Source: Halioglobus sp. (lineage in GTDB: Bacteria > Pseudomonadota > Gammaproteobacteria > Pseudomonadales > Halieaceae). Taken from it: a stretch of 64,000 nt of DNA. Every line of letters starts with the position of its first letter. Within the stretch, counting starts at the first letter, position 1. The notes below the pieces were generated by a model. The model searched no databases, was not told the origin of the DNA, and saw only the letters and a list, made by a program, of their open reading frames with translations. Both the position numbers and the translations under genes were made by a program. Below, in pieces: positions 2,917 through 41,894 of the stretch. The stretch is from contig CBDHGD010000002.1 in assembly GCA_965262875.1 (NCBI GenBank), positions 42,984 to 106,983 of the forward strand. The letters run 5' to 3'.

Positions 2917-3020
2917 CAGGCCTTGTTGTCGGGATATTTTAAAAACCCTTGAGTATCCACTCATTGGTTCCAACCCCCCGTCTTCAGACGGGAGTGCTTT
3001 AGCACGAAAGAATCGGTTAT

Positions 3021-3086
3021 AGTCTTATCCTCCCTAAAAATGAGCCGCCGTAAGGAATAAGGCTCATTTTTAGGGAGGATAAGACT
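3021..3086 (+). promoter_or_regulatory. 26-bp perfect stem hairpin sequestering the tnpA ribosome-binding site
   Basis: AGTCTTATCCTCCCTAAAAATGAGCC (3021-3046) pairs with GGCTCATTTTTAGGGAGGATAAGACT (3061-3086). The right arm holds GGAGGA and ends 1 nt before the ATG, as is known for IS200 translational control. Confidence 0.7.
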
Positions 3087-3503
3087 ATGCAATATGACAC
3101 TGGGAAACACTGCGTTTTCTACCATCGCTATCACATCGTTTGGACAACAAAATATCGCTACAAGGTTCTGCGTGGGGCGGTTCAATTGCGGGTGCGTGAC
3201 ATCATCAAACAAGTTTGCAGCGAGAAAGGCGTCGATATAATCACAGGCGTCCTTTCCAGCGACCACGTTCATATGTTTGTGTCCGTTCCGCCAAAACTGG
3301 CGATCAGTGACTTGGTGCGACTTATGAAAGGACGCTCATCCCACAAAGTCCAACGCGAGTTTACACACCTGAAGAAACGCTACTGGGGCTGTCACTTTTG
3401 GGGGCGTGGGTATTTTTCAACCACCAACGGTGTGATCACAGAAGACTTCGTACTTCAGTACCTGGAAAATCACATCCCTCATCCTACCGACGCCAGTCGG
3501 TAG
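3087..3503 (+). CDS. tnpA: IS200/IS605 Y1 (HUH) transposase TnpA
   Basis: 138 aa with YHIVWTTKYR, the HUH motif SDHVHMFV, and GRGYF near the C-terminus. Confidence 0.9.
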   Translation: MQYDTGKHCVFYHRYHIVWTTKYRYKVLRGAVQLRVRDIIKQVCSEKGVDIITGVLSSDHVHMFVSVPPKLAISDLVRLMKGRSSHKVQREFTHLKKRYWGCHFWGRGYFSTTNGVITEDFVLQYLENHIPHPTDASR

Positions 3504-3533
3504 TGGTTGAGTGGTATTCATTAGAGTGCTATT

Positions 3534-34672: not shown

Positions 34673-36079
34673 ATGACCACCCAAAATATGAACACCCTGC
34701 TGAGCGATTGCCGGATTGCCCTGAACAAGCTGACCCTGCATCCGCGCAACGTGCGGGCCGGCAGTATTACGGCCTATGCGGCGGCGGCGATCACACCGCT
34801 GGCGGCCAATATCGCCCTGCGCGGCTTGCTGCAACCGCTCGTGGTGCAAAAGCTTGAGGATGGCACTTACGGCGTTGTTGGCGGTGGCCGCCGTCTGGCC
34901 GCGCTCAAGACACTGGCGGAAGATAAAGCCGCCAAAGGCTTCGGGAAATCCATGAAAGTGGCCTGTCGGGAGATGTCCGGCGACGAGGTTGCGCTGTCCA
35001 CCGTGAGCTATTCGGAGAATGCGTTGCAACTGCCGATGGATGCGCTGGATCGCTATGAGGCGTTTGCCGCGATGCGCGATCAGGATGGTGCAAGCATTGA
35101 TCTGATCGCGCGCAGTTTTGCGATTACAGAACGGCAGGTGAGGGAAGCCCTGCGTCTGGGCAATATCCACGTCGATATCCGCGATGCGCACCGATCCGGT
35201 CAAATCAACCTTGAAGCCTTGCGGGCGTTCGATGCGCACCCGGATCCAGAGGTGCAGCTGGAAACCTTCACCGGTCTCGCACAGGAACACGGGGCTGTCA
35301 CATCCTGGCAGGTGCGCCAAGCGTTTCAAAACCGCTGGGTGCGGGTTGGCGATGCGGTTGGCGCGTTTGTGCGCGAAGCTTATATCGCCGCAGGGGGCGA
35401 GGTTCTGGCCGATCTGATCGAGGAGGACAGTATTCTGGCCGACAACAGCCTGATCACCAAACTGCTGGCCGAAGACCTTCAGGCGCGCGCGGAGGCAGAA
35501 CGGGCGCGGCTTGGCTTTGCCTGGGCGGAATATCGCACAGAAGCCCGCCGGGACAGTTTCAGCGATTACGGGCGGCTCTATCCTGAGGCGCTTGATCTCG
35601 ATGACGCCACGCAAGCCAGGGTGGATCAATTGACCGAAGAGTTGGATGCGATCAGTGCAGACTATGAAGCGTCCCCGGATGCCGAGGCCGAAGCCGCACT
35701 TGAGGCCCGTCACGCGGTGCTTGAGGCGGAGATCGATGCGTTGACGCAAGGCTACAGCGCAGGCGATCTGGGGCTTGGCGGTGTTATCGCGGTCTGGGAC
35801 CGGTGCGAGGTGAAGTTTTTTGGCGGCATGGTACGGCCGGAACAAATGCCGGATCGCAATACGGACGATCAGGTCGGGTCCGGGGACGGCACCACGGCCA
35901 ATACCGCACCGGACACAGCTGTCGGGCCAAAGCTGTCTGCCAAGCTAGCGGGCGATATGGCACATATCCGTACAAGGGCTGTGGGGCTGGCCCTGGCGTA
36001 ATCGCCCGAAGTGGCGGGCGATTACGCCTGCTATACGCTGATCCGTCAGGTTCTGGGGGATTGGAACTATAGCAATGCG
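34673..36079 (+). pseudogene. ParB/Srx-like N-terminal domain protein, 5' part (nonsense codon, then transposon interruption)
   Basis: LHPRNVR...GGGRRLAALKTL ParB box. An in-frame TAA at 35999-36001 is followed by 26 more open codons up to the insertion point. Confidence 0.7.
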
Positions 36080-36150
36080 CCCCTATGTAGCAAACGCACC
36101 AAAGGAGGCTAATAAATGACTCCACAATATGGGCAATCTGTGATCTTTTC

Positions 36151-37032
36151 ATGTTCATGTTCAATTTTTACAAGGCTTGTTTTTCTAAAGCGTTTTCTGG
36201 AAAATTCTGGATGGTTGAAAAGTGGACGGGTGGTTTATCTATACTTGCTCTCGTTTTTACACGGCTATTGCCAACGCCAGAGTGGATGGCGACAATGTTA
36301 GAAACAGACGGCCCACTATATTTTTTCTTGGTAATATTCGTCCTTACGGTTTTCTTGGGCTTAGTTGCCGCGCCTTATGCACTTTACAAAGAGCAGTTAG
36401 ACGCGCGTATTGAGAGCGAAGCGAAAAGAAAACCGACCCTTAATGTTTTTCTAAAAAATTCTACTTCTTCAGACGTTTTGCGTGGTGCTACTTCTCAAGC
36501 ACTTTCTGGGAGTAGACAAACTGTAATTACTAATTCAATTCCGAGTGTTTTAAGTGTTACCTGTAAAAATACAGGCGAAACCAAAGCATTAAACTGTGTC
36601 GCCAGAATAGTATCTGCAAAGCAAGTAGACGCAGAGCCAGACAGAGTTTTAGACATAACAGAATCTATAATCCTACCTTGGGATCAGTGTGATCCAGAAA
36701 AAAGCTTAACCAAAGATATGCCCCCAAGTGATATATCCAGAATTTGGATTGCCAGTATCAATGCCAGCGGCCACTTGTGGATTTTTAGGGAAACTGGGAA
36801 ACTTCCAGTGGAATACCAAAGGTTTTTCGGATCTGCTGGAAAATACGAAGTTATTATACAGATTGACTCAGACAACTGCCCACCAATCCAGACAATGATC
36901 CGCATGATTTCACGTGAATATGAAGGCACTGGGAGTGGTGTACATAAGGGCGAAGGGGAGATTTCTATTTTATCACAAGGCTCTCCACGCCTACCGCCCC
37001 CGGACTCAACCACTACCGACTGGCGTCGGTAG
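36151..37032 (+). CDS. hypothetical membrane protein (2 N-terminal TM helices + beta-rich domain); last 6 codons come from IS200
   Basis: LSILALVFTRLL and LYFFLVIFVLTVFLGLVAAPYAL hydrophobic helices; no motif recognised. The frame runs into the IS200 end at 37014. Confidence 0.45.
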   Translation: MFMFNFYKACFSKAFSGKFWMVEKWTGGLSILALVFTRLLPTPEWMATMLETDGPLYFFLVIFVLTVFLGLVAAPYALYKEQLDARIESEAKRKPTLNVFLKNSTSSDVLRGATSQALSGSRQTVITNSIPSVLSVTCKNTGETKALNCVARIVSAKQVDAEPDRVLDITESIILPWDQCDPEKSLTKDMPPSDISRIWIASINASGHLWIFRETGKLPVEYQRFFGSAGKYEVIIQIDSDNCPPIQTMIRMISREYEGTGSGVHKGEGEISILSQGSPRLPPPDSTTTDWRR

Positions 37033-37429
37033 GATGAGGGATGTGATTTTCCAGGTACTGAAGTACGAAGTCTTCTGTGATCACACCGTTGGTGGTTGAA
37101 AAATACCCACGCCCCCAAAAGTGACAGCCCCAGTAGCGTTTCTTCAGGTGTGTAAACTCGCGTTGGACTTTGTGGGATGAGCGTCCTTTCATAAGTCGCA
37201 CCAAGTCACTGATCGCCAGTTTTGGCGGAACGGACACAAACATATGAACGTGGTCGCTGGAAAGGACGCCTGTGATTATATCGACGCCTTTCTCGCTGCA
37301 AACTTGTTTGATGATGTCACGCACCCGCAATTGAACCGCCCCACGCAGAACCTTGTAGCGATATTTTGTTGTCCAAACGATGTGATAGCGATGGTAGAAA
37401 ACGCAGTGTTTCCCAGTGTCATATTGCAT
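37013..37429 (-). CDS. tnpA: IS200/IS605 Y1 transposase TnpA
   Basis: 138 aa, identical to 3087-3503. Confidence 0.9.
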   Translation of the reverse strand: MQYDTGKHCVFYHRYHIVWTTKYRYKVLRGAVQLRVRDIIKQVCSEKGVDIITGVLSSDHVHMFVSVPPKLAISDLVRLMKGRSSHKVQREFTHLKKRYWGCHFWGRGYFSTTNGVITEDFVLQYLENHIPHPTDASR

Positions 37430-37567
37430 AGTCTTATCCTCCCTAAAAATGAGCCTTATTCCTTACGGCGGCTCATTTTTAGGGAGGATAAGACTATAAC
37501 CGATTCTTTCGTGCTAAAGCACTCCCGTCTGAAGACGGGGGGTTGGAACCAATGAGTGGATACTCAA
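37014..37567 (-). mobile_element. IS200/IS605-family element, copy B (inverted relative to copy A)
   Basis: Identical to 2949-3512. Confidence 0.85.
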
Positions 37568-38321
37568 CCATAAAAGCCGCGCTAAACTTACCACGCGATA
37601 GCTTATTGCGAATATTTGCCTCTTTATCTCCGATTAATTCAGACAACTGGGCATATGTAAGGGCATGTCGTCCGTGCAGTTCTCGCGCGTTCTAAACGTC
37701 CAGTACAAAACGGCTTGGGTTATGGCGCACAAATTACGCGAGGCTTTAGGTGCCGAAGTTCAGAATACAGAGTTAAACGGTGAAGTTGAAATTGACGGGG
37801 CATATTTTGGTGGTCACATCAAACCCGCCAATGAAAAGGTAAACCGTGTTGATCGCCGTAAGAAAGAACACCAAACGGGCCTGAGACGCGTTGTAATCGC
37901 CCTGCGTGAGCGTAAGGGCCGTACACTGACCTTTATCCGCAAAAGCGAACAAGAGGGCGTAGAAATCGCAAATGAGGTTGTTGACCAAGACGCTATGATG
38001 TTTGCAGACGAAGCAACCCACTGGGACGCACTGGACGATACGTTTGAATGTGGCCGCATTAACCACAGTGAGCGTTATTCTGAAATGAATGGTAAGCACA
38101 CAAATTGGGTTGAAAGCTATTTCAGCCGCCTACGTCGCATGGTGCAAGGCCAGCACCACTTTGTATCGCCTAAGTACCTACACCAGTACGCAACACATGC
38201 TGCGTGGTGTGAAGATCATCGGTTGGAGGATAACAAGGTTTTGACGTTCCGCGCGTTGCGGAGTGCCTTGTTTTCGCCAGTTAGCGGCAACCTAAAGGGT
38301 TATTGGCAGAAGGTCACCTAA
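37568..38321 (+). pseudogene. IS1595-family (ISXO2-like) transposase, N-terminus lost and frameshifted
   Basis: SSVQFSRVLNVQYKTAWVMAHKLREAL...GEVEIDGAYFGG...NHSERY...NWVESYFSRLRR. The zinc-ribbon N-terminus is missing, with the IS200 abutting at 37567. There is a stop at 37635 and an apparent frameshift near 37650. Confidence 0.7.
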
Positions 38322-38384
38322 TAACCATCATTGAATATTTCAAATAATGAACTATATTAGTGGTACGCAGGAGAGTAAAAAACC

Positions 38385-38828
38385 ATGAAAAACAGTGAAA
38401 CTGTTGCAAACAAGTTTGTTGAGCTTGCTGCGCTAGCAGATGAGTCCCTTACACCTATGCAGATTCTAAAATTAACTTATATTGCTCATGGATGGATGCT
38501 TGGATTATACAAGAGACCTTTAATTAAAGATGAAGTTCAGGCTTGGCAGTATGGCCCTGTAATTTCTACTTTATACAACAAACTTCGAAACTATCGAAGT
38601 GCACCAGTCTTACGTATAGTCCCCTATGGAGACGAAACTCTCGATGAAAAGGAGGCCAATATAGTCAAACAAGTTTATGATAAATATGGCCATCTTAGCG
38701 GGCCAGCCCTATCAAGGCTAACACATGCAAAGGATACCCCTTGGGATTTGATTTACGAAAAGGGTAGTTTCGGCTTGGTCATATCAAATGACCTAATAGA
38801 AGATCATTACGCGAGCATGTCTAATTGA
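38385..38828 (+). CDS. Panacea/DUF4065-domain protein (SocA/PanA-like antitoxin)
   Basis: LTPMQILKLTYIAHGWMLGLYKRPLIKDEVQAWQYGPVISTLY matches the DUF4065 core (KL.KL.Y...G...w.yGPV). Confidence 0.75.
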   Translation: MKNSETVANKFVELAALADESLTPMQILKLTYIAHGWMLGLYKRPLIKDEVQAWQYGPVISTLYNKLRNYRSAPVLRIVPYGDETLDEKEANIVKQVYDKYGHLSGPALSRLTHAKDTPWDLIYEKGSFGLVISNDLIEDHYASMSN

Positions 38829-39217
38829 GTGAAGATGATGATATTAATAAGAAAATTCCAGATCAAACCCCTGATATGGATGCCGCAAGGGGTCGTCGAG
38901 ACAAGCGGGGTACCGCAGAATCCAAGCAACTCTCAAGTGGAAAATCTGCAAACGAAATAAAAACTGAGGCAGAGCAGGCAGAAGCTGATAGAACTGAAAA
39001 GTTCCGCAATCATTTTGAGTGTCTAGCTATAATAACGTTATACATTGTTTGGGTAAGTATTGTTATTGTTGGACTCACTTGGCTCTATCACCTAATTGCT
39101 CCGCCCTGCTGGCCCAGACTGCCAGATGAGCAGGTTGGTAATATTCAAGCAATTGTTACGGGTGGTATTATTGCTGGAATTGCTGGTGGACATATGAAAA
39201 AACGTTTAAACCAATAA
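38825..39217 (+). CDS. putative membrane toxin partner (2 C-terminal TM helices)
   Basis: TTG start overlapping the upstream stop. Charged N-terminal half, then LAIITLYIVWVSIVIVGLTWLYHLI and AIVTGGIIAGIAGG. The start codon is uncertain. Confidence 0.45.
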   Translation: MSEDDDINKKIPDQTPDMDAARGRRDKRGTAESKQLSSGKSANEIKTEAEQAEADRTEKFRNHFECLAIITLYIVWVSIVIVGLTWLYHLIAPPCWPRLPDEQVGNIQAIVTGGIIAGIAGGHMKKRLNQ

Positions 39218-39559
39218 CCACAACCCACCCTCACTAGCCCAAGCCCCACGCTTTACCCCACCTGACAAAGCCACATGCACTGACATGCGAAGCCCTTCAT
39301 GGCTAACACCTTTGGCTTTCCCAACATAAGCAACAACCTCTGGCCCCGCCTTAGGCCCATCACGCAATGCCTTTGCAATGTATCGGGATAACTCACCACG
39401 CTTAAACACGCGCGGCCTGTACTGCCTGATAAGCTGATTGTCTGGGTTATAGCCCTTTTGCAGTAGCAGGGCGTTGATATGCTCAAGCCCCGCCTGATCG
39501 CCTCGTATGGCTTCTAGGCGCATGTGCAATAACATACTTATAATGGAACTATCTTTCAT
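39206..39559 (-). CDS. hypothetical protein at the right end of the insertion
   Basis: ORF only; no motif recognised. Confidence 0.25.
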   Translation of the reverse strand: MKDSSIISMLLHMRLEAIRGDQAGLEHINALLLQKGYNPDNQLIRQYRPRVFKRGELSRYIAKALRDGPKAGPEVVAYVGKAKGVSHEGLRMSVHVALSGGVKRGAWASEGGLWLLV

Positions 39560-39627
39560 GGTGGTAATTTACTTGATTAACACCGCAAAAGCGTCAGGAA
39601 ACTTGGTGCGTTTGCTACATAAGGCCG

Positions 39628-40272
39628 TAGCAATGCGACCAGCCTGCGTGCAGATGTGGCCAGTCGGGGACCAGACGAGGTGAGTGGCTCGCTGGCGCAG
39701 ATCGAGGAGGTGTTAGCAACGCTGCGGGACGGGCTGGAGCTTGACTGGATCGAGATCGAGGGTGCGGACGGGTTTGCCACATTCCGGGCATTGCCTGAGG
39801 GATCCCGCGCGGATCTTCTGGCCTATGCGGTGGCGCAGACGCTGGAACCGAAGCTGGTCACGGAGTTGCGCGATCCGGTGCGCGAGACGGTCGAGATCGC
39901 GGTTCTGCCCAACCTGCGCGCTGTCTGGACGCTCGACGCGGCGTTCCTGAAGCGTCTGGCCAAATCAGACCTGCTGGAAATCCTGCGTGATATGGATATG
40001 CGCACCGAGGCGCAGACCTACCAAAAGGCGAAGAAGACAGGGCTTGTGAGCTATATGGTCAAGTTGTTTGCCGAACCCTTTGCCACGCTGACCGATCGCC
40101 AACGTCAGGCCGTCAACAGCTGGTGTCCGTCGGTGATGATGGCCGCGCTGCCAACGGAAACCCGCCGTTCCGAGCGTCAGGTGCAATTGCAACAATTCTC
40201 AACCCCGCTGGATCTGGCGTTTATCGTGGCCATGGCAGCGCGGATCACAAAGGCGGATGTGGTGCTGGACCC
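39628..40272 (+). pseudogene. ParB-like gene 3' part, running into a short N6-methylase-like N-terminal fragment
   Basis: The frame continues from the duplicated SNA codons. It ends with QFSTPLDLAFIVAMAARITKADVVLDP, which resembles the TP..LA.....D.VLEPSAG start of the methylase/helicase genes of conjugative elements. Confidence 0.6.
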
Positions 40273-41894
40273 GCGCCTTCATGGCGGGCGAAAAAGCCAT
40301 CCTGATTTTCTCGGATGCAGGTGGCACCGGACGCTCCTACCATGCGGCAGCTGGCGGGTCATCCACTGTGGGGTCATCCACTGCCTCGGCAGGGCTTGCT
40401 TGCAAGCGCCGTCGGACTGGCAGGGCCAAACTGGCCCGAGAAGTCGAGAGAGGGGCAGACGGGTCATCAGCCGGGGCCACAACCCCGAAACGGCGGCGGC
40501 ATTATCTCATGGAACCGGGCTGGCGGGCGGATGCGGCGATCCAGGGGCTGGGGCGCACCCATAGGGCGGCGCAGGTCTCGGCGCCGCATTTCCGGGTTTG
40601 CACGACGGATGTGCACGGCGAAAAACGCTTTACCTCGACCATTGCGCGGCGGCTCGATACATTAGGCGCGCTCACCAAAGGCCAGCGCGAAACTGCCTCG
40701 CAGGGCATGTTCCGGGCCAGTGACAATCTGGAAAGCCCGATTGCGCGGGCCTGCCTGCGCAGTCTCTACAGCGATATTGTGCGCGGCGAGGCCGTGAACC
40801 CACGGAACGGCGATACGCTGACCTATGAGACATTCTGCGACTGGACGGGATTGAGGCTGGTCACACGCGAGGGCGCGCTGTTGGAAGAACTGCCGCCAAT
40901 CCAGCGGTTTCTCAACCGGGTGCTGGCCTTGCCGATTGCGCTGCAGAATGCGGTGTTCTCTGCACTGATGGAAAAGATCAATCTGGCTTTAGCCCGCGCA
41001 CGCGATGCGGGGCGGCTGGATGTCGGGCTTGAAACCTTGCGCGGCGACCGGATTACGGCGGGCGCGGCACAGGAATTGCGCTGTTGCGAGACCACAGGAG
41101 CCATCACATCGCTGGTGCCGGTCAAGGTGGAACAGCGCCGGAGCTATCTTTCTGCGGCGGCGGTACTGGAGCAGCATCCATCGCTGACACCGATGCAGAA
41201 TACCGCCAGTGGCGCGGTGGCACTGGTCAGCCCGCGCCCGCGTCAGGTGTTTGACGAGGCGGGCGGGGTTGGCTTTGAACGGCGCATTATTCGTCCGACG
41301 GGCAGCGGGTTTATCGAAGAGCAGCAACTCACCCGCTCCAACTGGGAAGATGTGGACAGCGCGGCATTCCGTAAGCTCTGGGATGCGCAGGTGGCGGAGT
41401 TGCCCGAGATGGAAGTCACCGAGCTGCATCTGCTGACCGGGCTGATCCTGCCGATCTGGAAGCAGATCCCGGGGCAGAACACCCGGATTTACCGCGTGCA
41501 GCCCGAAAGCGGCCCGGCGTTGCTGGGGCGCGCACTTGATGCCGGTCAGGCGGCGGTTTTGCGCGGGCGGTTCATGGATCTGGCGGTGGCGACGCCGGAA
41601 GAGATGCTTGCCGTGGTGATTAGCACGGACCGGGCGGTGGAGCTCGGCGCGGGTCTCAGCCTGAAACAACGCCGTGTGGCGGGGTAAAAACGGCTGGAAC
41701 TGACAGGGGCAGGGACAGCAGAAATGGCCTGGCTGAAATCTTTGGGCTGCTTTACCGAAATCCACCAGTACCAGCTGCGGCTGTTTGTGCCGATGGATGA
41801 CCCGGCAGCCGATGACCCGGCAGCCGATGACCCGGTTTCCGATGAGAATGCGGCGCTGCGGATTGTGACCGAAATCGTGGCCCGGCAGGCTTGA
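40257..41894 (+). pseudogene. Strawberry-notch (Sno)-type helicase, C-terminal third only, with in-frame insertions and a premature TAA
   Basis: GEKAILIFSDAGGTGRSYHA ... RRRHYLMEPGWRADAAIQGLGRTHRAAQVSAPHF ... GEKRFTSTIARRLDTLGALTKGQR. An in-frame TAA lies at 41685-41687, followed by 69 more open codons. Confidence 0.75.
41796..41835 (+). repeat. 15-bp tandem repeat x2.7 (GATGACCCGGCAGCC)
   Basis: Read directly; encodes DDPAA DDPAA DDP. Confidence 0.85.

Follow-up and report, generated by a model that had tools for sequence, protein, structure and literature searches.

An IS1595-family transporter insertion sequence, probably degenerate and non-autonomous, with a putative Panacea toxin-antitoxin cargo inside a parB-like gene

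Insertion sequences (IS) of the IS1595 family are recognised by an 8-bp target-site duplication (TSD), an N-terminal Zn finger and a DDE_Tnp_IS1595 domain, the Zn ribbon being present in all subgroups except IS1016 (PMC8101967). IS-like elements that also carry passenger genes are termed transporter IS (tIS), and ISNha5, of the IS1595 family, is a named example (PMC11891212). Toxin-antitoxin (TA) pairs are carried by Tn3-family transposons (Lima-Mendez et al. 2020, PMC7157771), and many loci of the PanA-PanT type (PanAT) adjoin transposase genes (PMC8832971); validated transmembrane (TM) PanT toxins combine a charged N-terminal region with a C-terminal TM segment, depolarise the membrane and are neutralised by their cognate PanA (PMC8832971). 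Here we describe an element that interrupts a parB-like gene in a 64,000-nt stretch of Halioglobus sp. (GenBank assembly GCA_965262875.1, contig CBDHGD010000002.1, positions 42,984 to 106,983 of the forward strand; the whole of this 64-kb stretch is called the window, and its numbering is used throughout). The element is very likely a degenerate, non-autonomous copy of an IS1595-family tIS with a putative TA pair as cargo.

The element occupies positions 36078-39627, or 3550 bp, and its GC content of 45.2%, as against 61.6% in the adjacent 4 kb flanks, bears out a preliminary description of the locus as an AT-rich insert. A repeat search delimits terminal inverted repeats (IRs) of 25 nt, complementary at 23 positions (92%); the 19-bp repeats named in that description (TATGTAGCAAACGCACCAA at 36084-36102, with its reverse complement at 39603-39621) are present as placed and lie within these longer ones. 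A 20-nt IR pattern searched with at most three mismatches matched the two ends of the element and no further site in the window, against a chance expectation of 0.01; two matches were not attained in any of 100 shuffles. The right end begins CGGCCTT and is a perfect match to the family consensus; the left end reads CGCCCCT as against CGGnnTT in nearly all relatives, with C for the near-invariant G at position 3 and C for T at position 6. At both junctions the letters TAGCAATGCG can be read (36070-36079 and 39628-39637), and they had been taken for a 10-bp duplication. The string is real, but we reject a duplication of that length and set the TSD at 8 bp (TAGCAATG), because 34 of the 37 sister elements that could be tested have perfect 8-bp TSDs abutting CGGnn... 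ends; the additional CG opens the left IR and agrees with the right-hand target only by chance.

The empty site confirms these limits. Excision in silico of the element and one repeat copy rejoins the parB-like frame (...GDWNYSNA|TSLRADVAS...), and a search with the rejoined protein returned 253 ParB-family homologs, the best of which (P0001, 667 aa, 99% identical) runs uninterrupted across the junction as ...GDWNYSNAT-CLRADVASRGPDEV.... The DNA of the empty site was taken from locus L004, whose homolog is 87% identical and which aligns over the junction without gaps at 84% identity, with a single TAGCAATG; P0001 and P0242, both 99% identical parB homologs, give it at the protein level only. 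The split ParB-like frame first proposed from the letters alone is therefore real, and the uninterrupted homologs that were to be sought for it exist. The same insertion is present at 99.95-100% identity in a 2.1-kb metagenome contig (L124). Searches of PLSDB plasmids with the element and its flanks (megablast and blastn) returned distant IS200 relatives only, with neither an empty site nor a second copy.

The transposase remnant places the element in its family. DDE_Tnp_IS1595 (PF12762) is matched over profile positions 2-152 of 153 (Pfam, E 3.5e-37), and the score on NCBIfam transpos_IS1595 is 135.6 bits (cut-off 75). The nearest intact transposase is P0121 (320 aa), to whose residues 103-319 the 218-aa open reading frame (ORF) aligns at 87% identity; P0121 contains both Zn_ribbon_IS1595 (PF12760) and DDE_Tnp_IS1595 (PF12762), as do the intact transposases of two further relatives, L125 (Aliiroseovarius) and L126 (a Rhodobacteraceae metagenome-assembled genome). 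The Zn ribbon is absent from the window copy through a mapped secondary deletion of ~470 bp, and by its domain content the copy is a truncated IS1595 member and not of a different family. As in other IS1595 elements, a DDE domain, an 8-bp TSD and terminal IRs at the exact boundaries occur together, with the Zn ribbon found at the level of the lineage; as in a tIS, non-transposase ORFs (five) lie within the IRs, and the slot downstream of the transposase gene (tnp) varies among sister elements.

These results uphold the proposal of an IS1595-type element with passenger genes, through its Pfam DDE domain, the sister ends and the intact relatives with Zn ribbon and DDE domain; cargo-bearing variants of the family were rightly said to be known, as the tIS category (PMC11891212). 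The original gene list also agrees with Pfam (Y1_Tnp, 1.7e-40; DDE_Tnp_IS1595; SocA_Panacea, 3.3e-20; three ORFs without a family match). The passenger genes are present; however, the left ORF slot, DUF6471 and the terminal 117-aa ORF belong to a conserved chassis and are not free cargo. ISNha5-type tIS share with this lineage a DDE_Tnp_IS1595 transposase whose intact copies bear an N-terminal Zn ribbon, an 8-bp TSD, short terminal IRs, a length above 3 kb and passenger genes between the IRs, including small putative DNA-binding regulators; the likeness drawn here is one of description, and the window copy differs in being truncated and in containing a nested IS200. A tblastn search of plasmids with P0121 gave no match in Nitrobacter, the host of ISNha5, at E<=1e-40. 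In ISfinder the ISNha5 subgroup is listed with CGGnnTT ends, a length of ~3.4-7.9 kb and passenger genes, to which the end motif and the size above 3 kb seen here may correspond.

A genome scan with the pattern YTATGTAGCAARCGCACCAA, covering one genome per species, returned at least 119 stretches. The IR-bearing loci listed are almost all from Alphaproteobacteria, including Sphingomonadales, Rhodobacterales, Hyphomicrobiales, Caulobacterales and Rhodospirillales; among them, 39 elements of 2.0-4.8 kb could be delimited, in addition to internally deleted derivatives of 202 and 996 bp. Sister ends read CGGnnTTATGTAGCAA[A/G]CGCACCAA. The element that encodes P0121 (L001-L003) is 2983 bp long, bounded by CGGCCTTATGTAGCAAACGCACCAA ... 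TTGGTGCGCTTGCTACATAAGTCCG and flanked by the 8-bp TSD GGAATTTA. Outside comM, TSDs show a weak symmetric preference, NRNNNNYN, position 2 being a purine in 24 of 25 cases and position 7 a pyrimidine in 20 of them; the TAGCAATG of the window fits this preference. Both the IRs and the TSD rule thus recur at the ends of dozens of other copies, as the preliminary description had proposed to check.

Full-size sister elements follow one plan (with tnp on the plus strand): left IR (IRL), left ORF, divergent DUF6471 gene, transposase gene, variable slot, terminal minus-strand ORF and right IR (IRR). The left ORF encodes 220-345 aa; 17 elements share a single minus-strand family in this place, and in other elements, the window copy among them, a plus-strand gene encodes a protein whose N-terminal TM module is joined to a variable C-terminus. 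The divergent DUF6471 gene (PF20075) encodes 68-130 aa, and no mention of DUF6471 was found in the literature. The terminal ORF (117-170 aa, minus strand) was found in 32 of the 38 elements and in each of these adjoins the tnp-distal IR (alignment A1). At or above the Pfam gathering score, the variable slot holds RelE (L072), Peptidase_M78/ImmA (L091), an XRE-type helix-turn-helix (HTH) protein (L096), a ParA-like ATPase (L077), DUF3800 (L006) or a Panacea protein (window, L080); that of L058 contains a Panacea homolog identified by BLAST. Three derivatives resembling miniature inverted-repeat transposable elements (MITEs; L044 2663-2864, 202 bp; L067 6028-7023, 996 bp; L106 289-2369, ~2.1 kb) keep both IRs and 8-bp TSDs, with one TSD mismatch in L067; since they do, non-autonomous copies of the family are, to judge by these footprints, mobilised.

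In the window, the variable slot holds a Panacea gene and a small downstream gene. The 147-aa Panacea protein, intact, scores 73.5 bits on SocA_Panacea (PF13274; cut-off 25.7). Its 130-aa partner has 45% charged residues in its first 60 aa and a hydrophobic C-terminal half with a TM segment at aa 66-84; 14 homologs were found in Rhodobacterales, all unannotated, and in three of three contexts read (L124, L125, L126) the homolog immediately follows a gene for a 147-aa Panacea protein. The pairs of L125 and L126, with a 4-bp overlap, stand directly 3' of the intact 320-aa transposase gene, in elements that have the family ends and an 8-bp TSD. For panA the pairwise pN/pS is 0.19-0.28 and for the 130-aa ORF 0.22-0.28, with synonymous sites saturated; on these comparisons, the Panacea antitoxin gene and its partner are intact, under purifying selection and maintained as a cargo module. 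The element is a mosaic: its transposase (87% aa identity) and terminal ORF (80%) are closest to L001, which lacks PanAT, and its PanAT proteins match those of L125 and L126 at 67-71% identity, the transposases of these two loci sharing only 61-65% with the window enzyme.

The closest described systems for this cargo are the PanA-PanT pairs with TM toxins (Kurata et al. 2022, PMC8832971). The window pair resembles them in its upstream Panacea gene, in the overlapping small protein with charged N-terminus and C-terminal TM segment, and in adjoining a transposase gene; it differs in occupying a defined cargo slot between the two IRs of an IS-type element, and its putative toxin is matched by layout. 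TA modules of Tn3-family transposons likewise stand beside transposition genes with a plausible addiction or stabilisation function (PMC7157771). Tn3-family elements, however, have a DDE transposase together with a resolvase and a res site; the window element has an IS1595 DDE transposase and neither of the latter, is much smaller and carries another type of TA pair. From domain content, architecture, conservation and the published PanAT work, we infer that the pair works as a toxin-antitoxin system: the Panacea antitoxin would bind and neutralise a small membrane-depolarising toxin, and the pair would favour retention of the element and of its replicon. A TA- or defence-like cargo had been flagged as notable; the Panacea pair is real, but such cargo has precedent (PMC7157771, PMC8832971). 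What the window adds is a clean, fully delimited PanA-PanT pair as cargo within the IRs of an IS-sized element, in support of the published suggestion that transposons help to shuffle Panacea TA pairs.

The copy has decayed in three ways when read against its relatives, through a deletion, an IS200 insertion and the deviant left IR described above. Compared with L001, ~470 bp are absent between ...TATGTAA and GGGCATG..., with the junction at ~37660/37661; the deletion took transposase codons 1-~102, the divergent intergenic and promoter region, and DUF6471 codons 1-28. The surviving DUF6471 codons are 79% identical at the aa level to residues 29-56 of the L001 protein, the intact homolog being a PF20075 member. 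The transposase had been called decapitated, correctly in that its first ~102 codons are gone; we rejected the nested IS200 as the cause, because the two are ~100 bp apart and the codons were lost in a deletion of their own.

The IS200 itself is a secondary insertion, distinct from the tIS, that has cut short both the left ORF and DUF6471 at their 3' ends. Its tnpA product matches Y1_Tnp (PF01797, 1.7e-40) and transpos_IS200 (NF033573, 1.7e-41, 141 bits against a cut-off of 55), and with a Y1 (HUH) transposase, a perfect subterminal hairpin and neither IRs nor TSD it belongs to the IS200/IS605 family, though at 564 bp it is shorter than a classical IS200 of ~700 bp. Its limits are set by a 100% identical copy elsewhere in the window, in the opposite orientation; because of this identical copy, IS200 is, on sequence grounds, recently active in this replicon. 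The flanks of the two copies have no common duplication and no obvious shared target tetranucleotide. Given the truncated transposase, the IS200 hit and the deviant left IR, the tIS copy appears to be non-autonomous and unable to move alone.

The interrupted gene is itself a wreck. A TAA codon (35999-36001) interrupts the parB-like frame where P0001 has Q (CAA) and L004 likewise has CAA; it lies within a 14-nt palindrome (35995-36008 / 36015-36028), perfect in the window but not in L004, and it is a nonsense mutation independent of the insertion. A 442-aa truncated product, P0241, falls in the same 90% cluster as the uninterrupted P0001. Identity to P0001 ends after ...NSWCPSVM, and the parB 3' end is lost: ~0.55 kb is absent, corresponding to L004 7265-7815, from the parB 3' end to the start of a Strawberry-notch-like gene. 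That methylase/helicase gene (window 40139-41805) is gutted, with a further ~2.6 kb absent and a ~100-bp patch (40371-40468) inverted relative to L004; its Helicase_C_4 part (40257-41687) is the sole surviving ORF. The intact neighbourhood in L004 comprises DUF2958, ParB, a Strawberry-notch-like methylase/helicase, ArdC and DUF736, an arrangement typical of the anti-restriction or leading region of alphaproteobacterial conjugative plasmids and integrative and conjugative elements (ICEs). The parB-like gene is a pseudogene with three independent lesions, the plasmid or ICE region around it is decaying, and the insertion is without a regulatory role.

These comparisons show the main events in the history of the copy. 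An intact ancestor (IRL, left TM-protein gene, divergent DUF6471 gene, transposase gene with Zn ribbon and DDE domain, PanA-PanT, terminal 117-aa gene, IRR) transposed into the parB-like gene, which lay in the ArdC/Strawberry-notch region on a plasmid or ICE of Rhodobacterales, and duplicated TAGCAATG. Two further events, whichever came first, damaged it: the ~470-bp deletion removed the divergent promoter, the ~102 transposase codons that encode the Zn-ribbon or DNA-binding part, and the 28 DUF6471 codons, and the 564-bp IS200 landed between DUF6471 and the left ORF and shortened each at its 3' end. Self-movement would then have been lost, and at best the copy could be mobilised in trans by an intact relative.

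Several points weigh against this account of a dead tIS copy with a TA cargo. The search for an intact mobilising copy covered the 64-kb window. Toxicity and neutralisation for the PanA/PanT-like pair are putative; the 130-aa protein has no match in Pfam, PADLOC or NCBIfam, and the PanA protein scores 86.4 bits on NCBIfam SocA_antitoxin, below the equivalog cut-off of 190. Assignment to the ISNha5 subgroup is tentative and follows the ISfinder end consensus. The type VI TA system SocAB was considered for the pair and rejected, both on this SocA score and because the partner is a small TM protein that is not SocB-like.

Four other explanations were weighed. That the 3.55-kb AT-rich segment is an islet from homologous or illegitimate recombination, its short repeats being coincidental, would suit its foreign base composition and mosaic internal ancestry; but the IRs and the 8-bp duplication stand exactly at the composition break and where homologs run continuous, and identical end architecture at dozens of unrelated loci already refutes this idea, leaving it next to no probability. 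Hardly better placed is a reversible interrupter whose regulated, precise excision restores parB, as a developmental or phase-variation switch. Both IRs are present and removal of the element with one TSD copy does restore the frame in silico, as was claimed from the outset, and locally that claim is true; however, exact restoration is the automatic result of any TSD-generating insertion, the transposase lacks its first ~102 codons and promoter region, and the left IR is off consensus at two near-invariant terminal positions. Excision would give no intact gene, as the TAA and the 3' deletion would remain. The insertion is not switch-like, because the parB-like gene is a pseudogene with three independent lesions, and we consider the switch effectively refuted and very improbable.

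The two remaining alternatives leave the tIS assignment in place and concern what the copy does. It could be defective in cis yet mobile in trans, a large cargo-carrying MITE that spreads PanAT while an intact relative supplies the transposase (and DUF6471). Both IRs are kept, the right one as a perfect consensus match, and the family does yield internally deleted, TSD-flanked derivatives, such as the three in L044, L067 and L106; against these stand the absence of a second IR copy from the window and the two substitutions near the tip of the left IR, and we think continued mobility unlikely. The Panacea pair, for its part, might serve primarily as anti-phage (abortive infection) defence cargo instead of as an addiction or stabilisation module. 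Sister slots that hold RelE, Peptidase_M78/ImmA, XRE HTH and DUF3800 proteins fit such a role, and TA networks that include Panacea are linked to phage defence in related work (PMC10440598). However, no PADLOC model matches any ORF of the element, the published TM-type PanT toxins were characterised as TA toxins and not as defence, and the same slot also holds non-defence genes such as the ParA-like ATPase; a primary defence role is likewise unlikely. We retain the reading of a dead tIS copy with a TA-like cargo.

For the window, the result is mainly an annotation fix, and no switch is involved: four 'hypothetical' genes, a truncated transposase and an IS200 become one nested, dead mobile element in a parB-like pseudogene. 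As such the element is ordinary, an IS200-hit member of a known IS family and of the tIS category, whose TA pair comes from a known superfamily and whose target is a pseudogene; TA cargo on transposons has precedent (PMC7157771; PMC8832971). The wider value lies at the level of the family, a tIS group with a cargo slot and with repeated insertions at two exact positions in comM. Public annotation does not recognise this composite unit, despite the large, structurally uniform group with its cargo slot.

Comparison of the flanks, with every element oriented by tnp, revealed three groups of loci that have flanking sequence in common. At site A (L034, L091, L105, L109, L111, L120, L078, L089, L117) the empty-site ORF reads ...GVLFLDELPEF|...LRQPLETG..., placing the insertion in the Walker-B codons of comM (LFLDELP|EF). 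At site B (L029, L031, L035, L060, L080, L088, L122, L008, L011, L056, L059, L119) it reads ...PPGAGKS...LPPLSPAEA|LEVSM..., ~25 codons after the comM Walker A; an earlier placement of site B at the comM start codon was rejected, as the site is internal. The restored ORFs are of the ComM/YifB type (ChlI, Mg_chelatase and Mg_chelatase_C, E 5e-92 and 1e-94). An element end abuts comM in 20 of the 119 listed IR-bearing loci (17%), always at one of the two positions (12 at site B, 8 at site A). These insertions occur in both orientations and in hosts from several alphaproteobacterial orders, and the elements concerned are scattered over the transposase tree among elements at other sites; a single inherited comM event was rejected on account of both the orientations and this scatter.

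The window element's three closest intact relatives, L001 (4958-7940), L125 (2642-5863) and L126 (190-3793), share a single orthologous position, in the interval that separates a GST gene from comM and ~70 bp upstream of the latter, with the TSD G[GCA][ACT]ATTTA. Their cargo differs (a 62-aa HTH-like ORF in L001, PanAT in L125 and L126), and different cargo at one orthologous site implies either cargo exchange in place or repeated hits on that site.

Tn7-like Tn6022/AbaR elements, which rely on TniQ/TnsF, are well known to attach at comM, as are some CRISPR-guided transposons (PMC11014353). The likeness to these is at the level of the family only, and consists of exact comM positions with clean TSDs; Tn7-like elements use TnsABC with TniQ/TnsF or CRISPR RNA (crRNA) targeting, whereas the tIS group has a single IS1595 transposase and small accessory proteins, and the window copy itself, unlike the comM-targeting Tn7-like elements, lies outside comM. 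By titles and abstracts, none of the literature naming both comM and IS1595 concerns such targeting, and no description of PanAT cargo, of the conserved chassis or of comM insertions for such tIS was found in the searchable literature. We tentatively raise the possibility, which we hold to be a serious one though short of even, of an undescribed Alphaproteobacteria-wide tIS group with a fixed chassis, an exchangeable slot for TA- or defence-type cargo and a programmed preference for two exact comM sites, the position ~70 bp upstream of comM being a third conserved one; the window element may be a stray plasmid-borne copy of it. The comM pattern could perhaps reflect programmed targeting, possibly via the accessory proteins, or selection on insertions. 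If such a group exists, its comM targeting would be convergent with that of Tn7-like Tn6022 and CRISPR-associated transposons (CAST), achieved by a one-transposase IS, perhaps through small accessory DNA-binding proteins. Were the targeting programmed, it would offer a simple, tractable system for target choice by a single-transposase IS, and another case of mobile elements disabling competence.

Table 1. Features of the element, its target gene and the related IS200 copy, in window coordinates.
Feature	Position	Strand	Remarks
Second IS200 copy	2949..3512	+	100% identical to the nested copy, opposite orientation
parB-like gene, 5' part	34673..36077	+	Pfam ParB_N; in-frame TAA 35999-36001; 99% identical to P0001
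Left TSD copy, TAGCAATG	36070..36077	.	8-bp rule from sister elements; single copy in L004 empty site
Left terminal IR, CGCCCCTATGTAGCAAACGCACCAA	36078..36102	+	25 nt, 92%; departs from CGGnnTT at positions 3 and 6
Left-slot ORF, 293 aa	36151..37032	+	Native sequence ends at 37003; last 29 nt read from IS200
Nested IS200, 564 bp	37004..37567	-	tnpA 37013-37429 (-); perfect 28-nt hairpin 37428-37497; no TSD
DUF6471 remnant, ~28 central codons	37568..37660	-	3' end cut by IS200, 5' end by deletion
Truncated IS1595-family transposase	37661..38321 (ORF 37665-38321, 218 aa)	+	DDE domain only
Panacea-domain (PanA/SocA-like) putative antitoxin, 147 aa	38385..38828	+	PF13274; intact
PanT-like putative membrane toxin, 130 aa	38825..39217	+	Overlaps panA by 4 bp
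Terminal accessory ORF, 117 aa	39206..39559	-	Conserved chassis gene; no Pfam match
Right terminal IR	39603..39627	-	Reverse complement CGGCCTTATGTAGCAAACGCACCAA, perfect family-consensus match
Right TSD copy, TAGCAATG	39628..39635	.	Repeat search; sister-element rule
parB-like gene, 3' part	39636..40139	+	Collinear with L004 6753-7264; ends ~40139, fused to Strawberry-notch-like remnants

The terminal 117-aa ORF, with a dN/dS of 0.21 relative to its L001 homolog, gave nothing significant when the profile of alignment A1 was compared with PDB sequences (best E 0.1, coiled coils), and a single-sequence AlphaFold model was unusable (pLDDT 46); its pattern suggests a helix followed by a winged-helix-like fold. 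Rfam gave no match between 35500 and 40200. A relative on a Limimaricola variabilis plasmid (L129, NZ_CP139696.1, 3001-4387), which adjoins an IS30 transposase and repB, is labelled by RefSeq as 'IS1595 family transposase' and 'hypothetical protein'.

The 293-aa left ORF has an N-terminal TM module with a strong hydrophobic segment at aa 56-74 and no Pfam, PADLOC or NCBIfam match. Its family comprises ~100 representative homolog clusters, mostly of 280-300 aa, and in L127 the homolog sits between the family IRL and a DUF6471 gene. In the representative search with the window protein, some matches cover residues ~4-100 only. Plus-strand left-slot proteins (for example in L015, L030, L060, L075, L088, L092, L096, L111 and L001 5036-5707) have no overall BLAST similarity and unrelated C-terminal domains; the layout common to them is two N-terminal hydrophobic helices, an AP[YF]-x-[ILW]-[WYK] motif and a coiled segment. 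Around the start of the 293-aa ORF at 36151 (36101-36160), a strong Shine-Dalgarno-like sequence, AAAGGAGG, lies 8 nt before an ATG at 36116 that opens a 61-aa ORF in another frame; this ORF could be a short leader, or the left-slot gene may truly start here and have been frameshifted. At the place equivalent to this ATG, L001 reads similarly (...ATGACTC).

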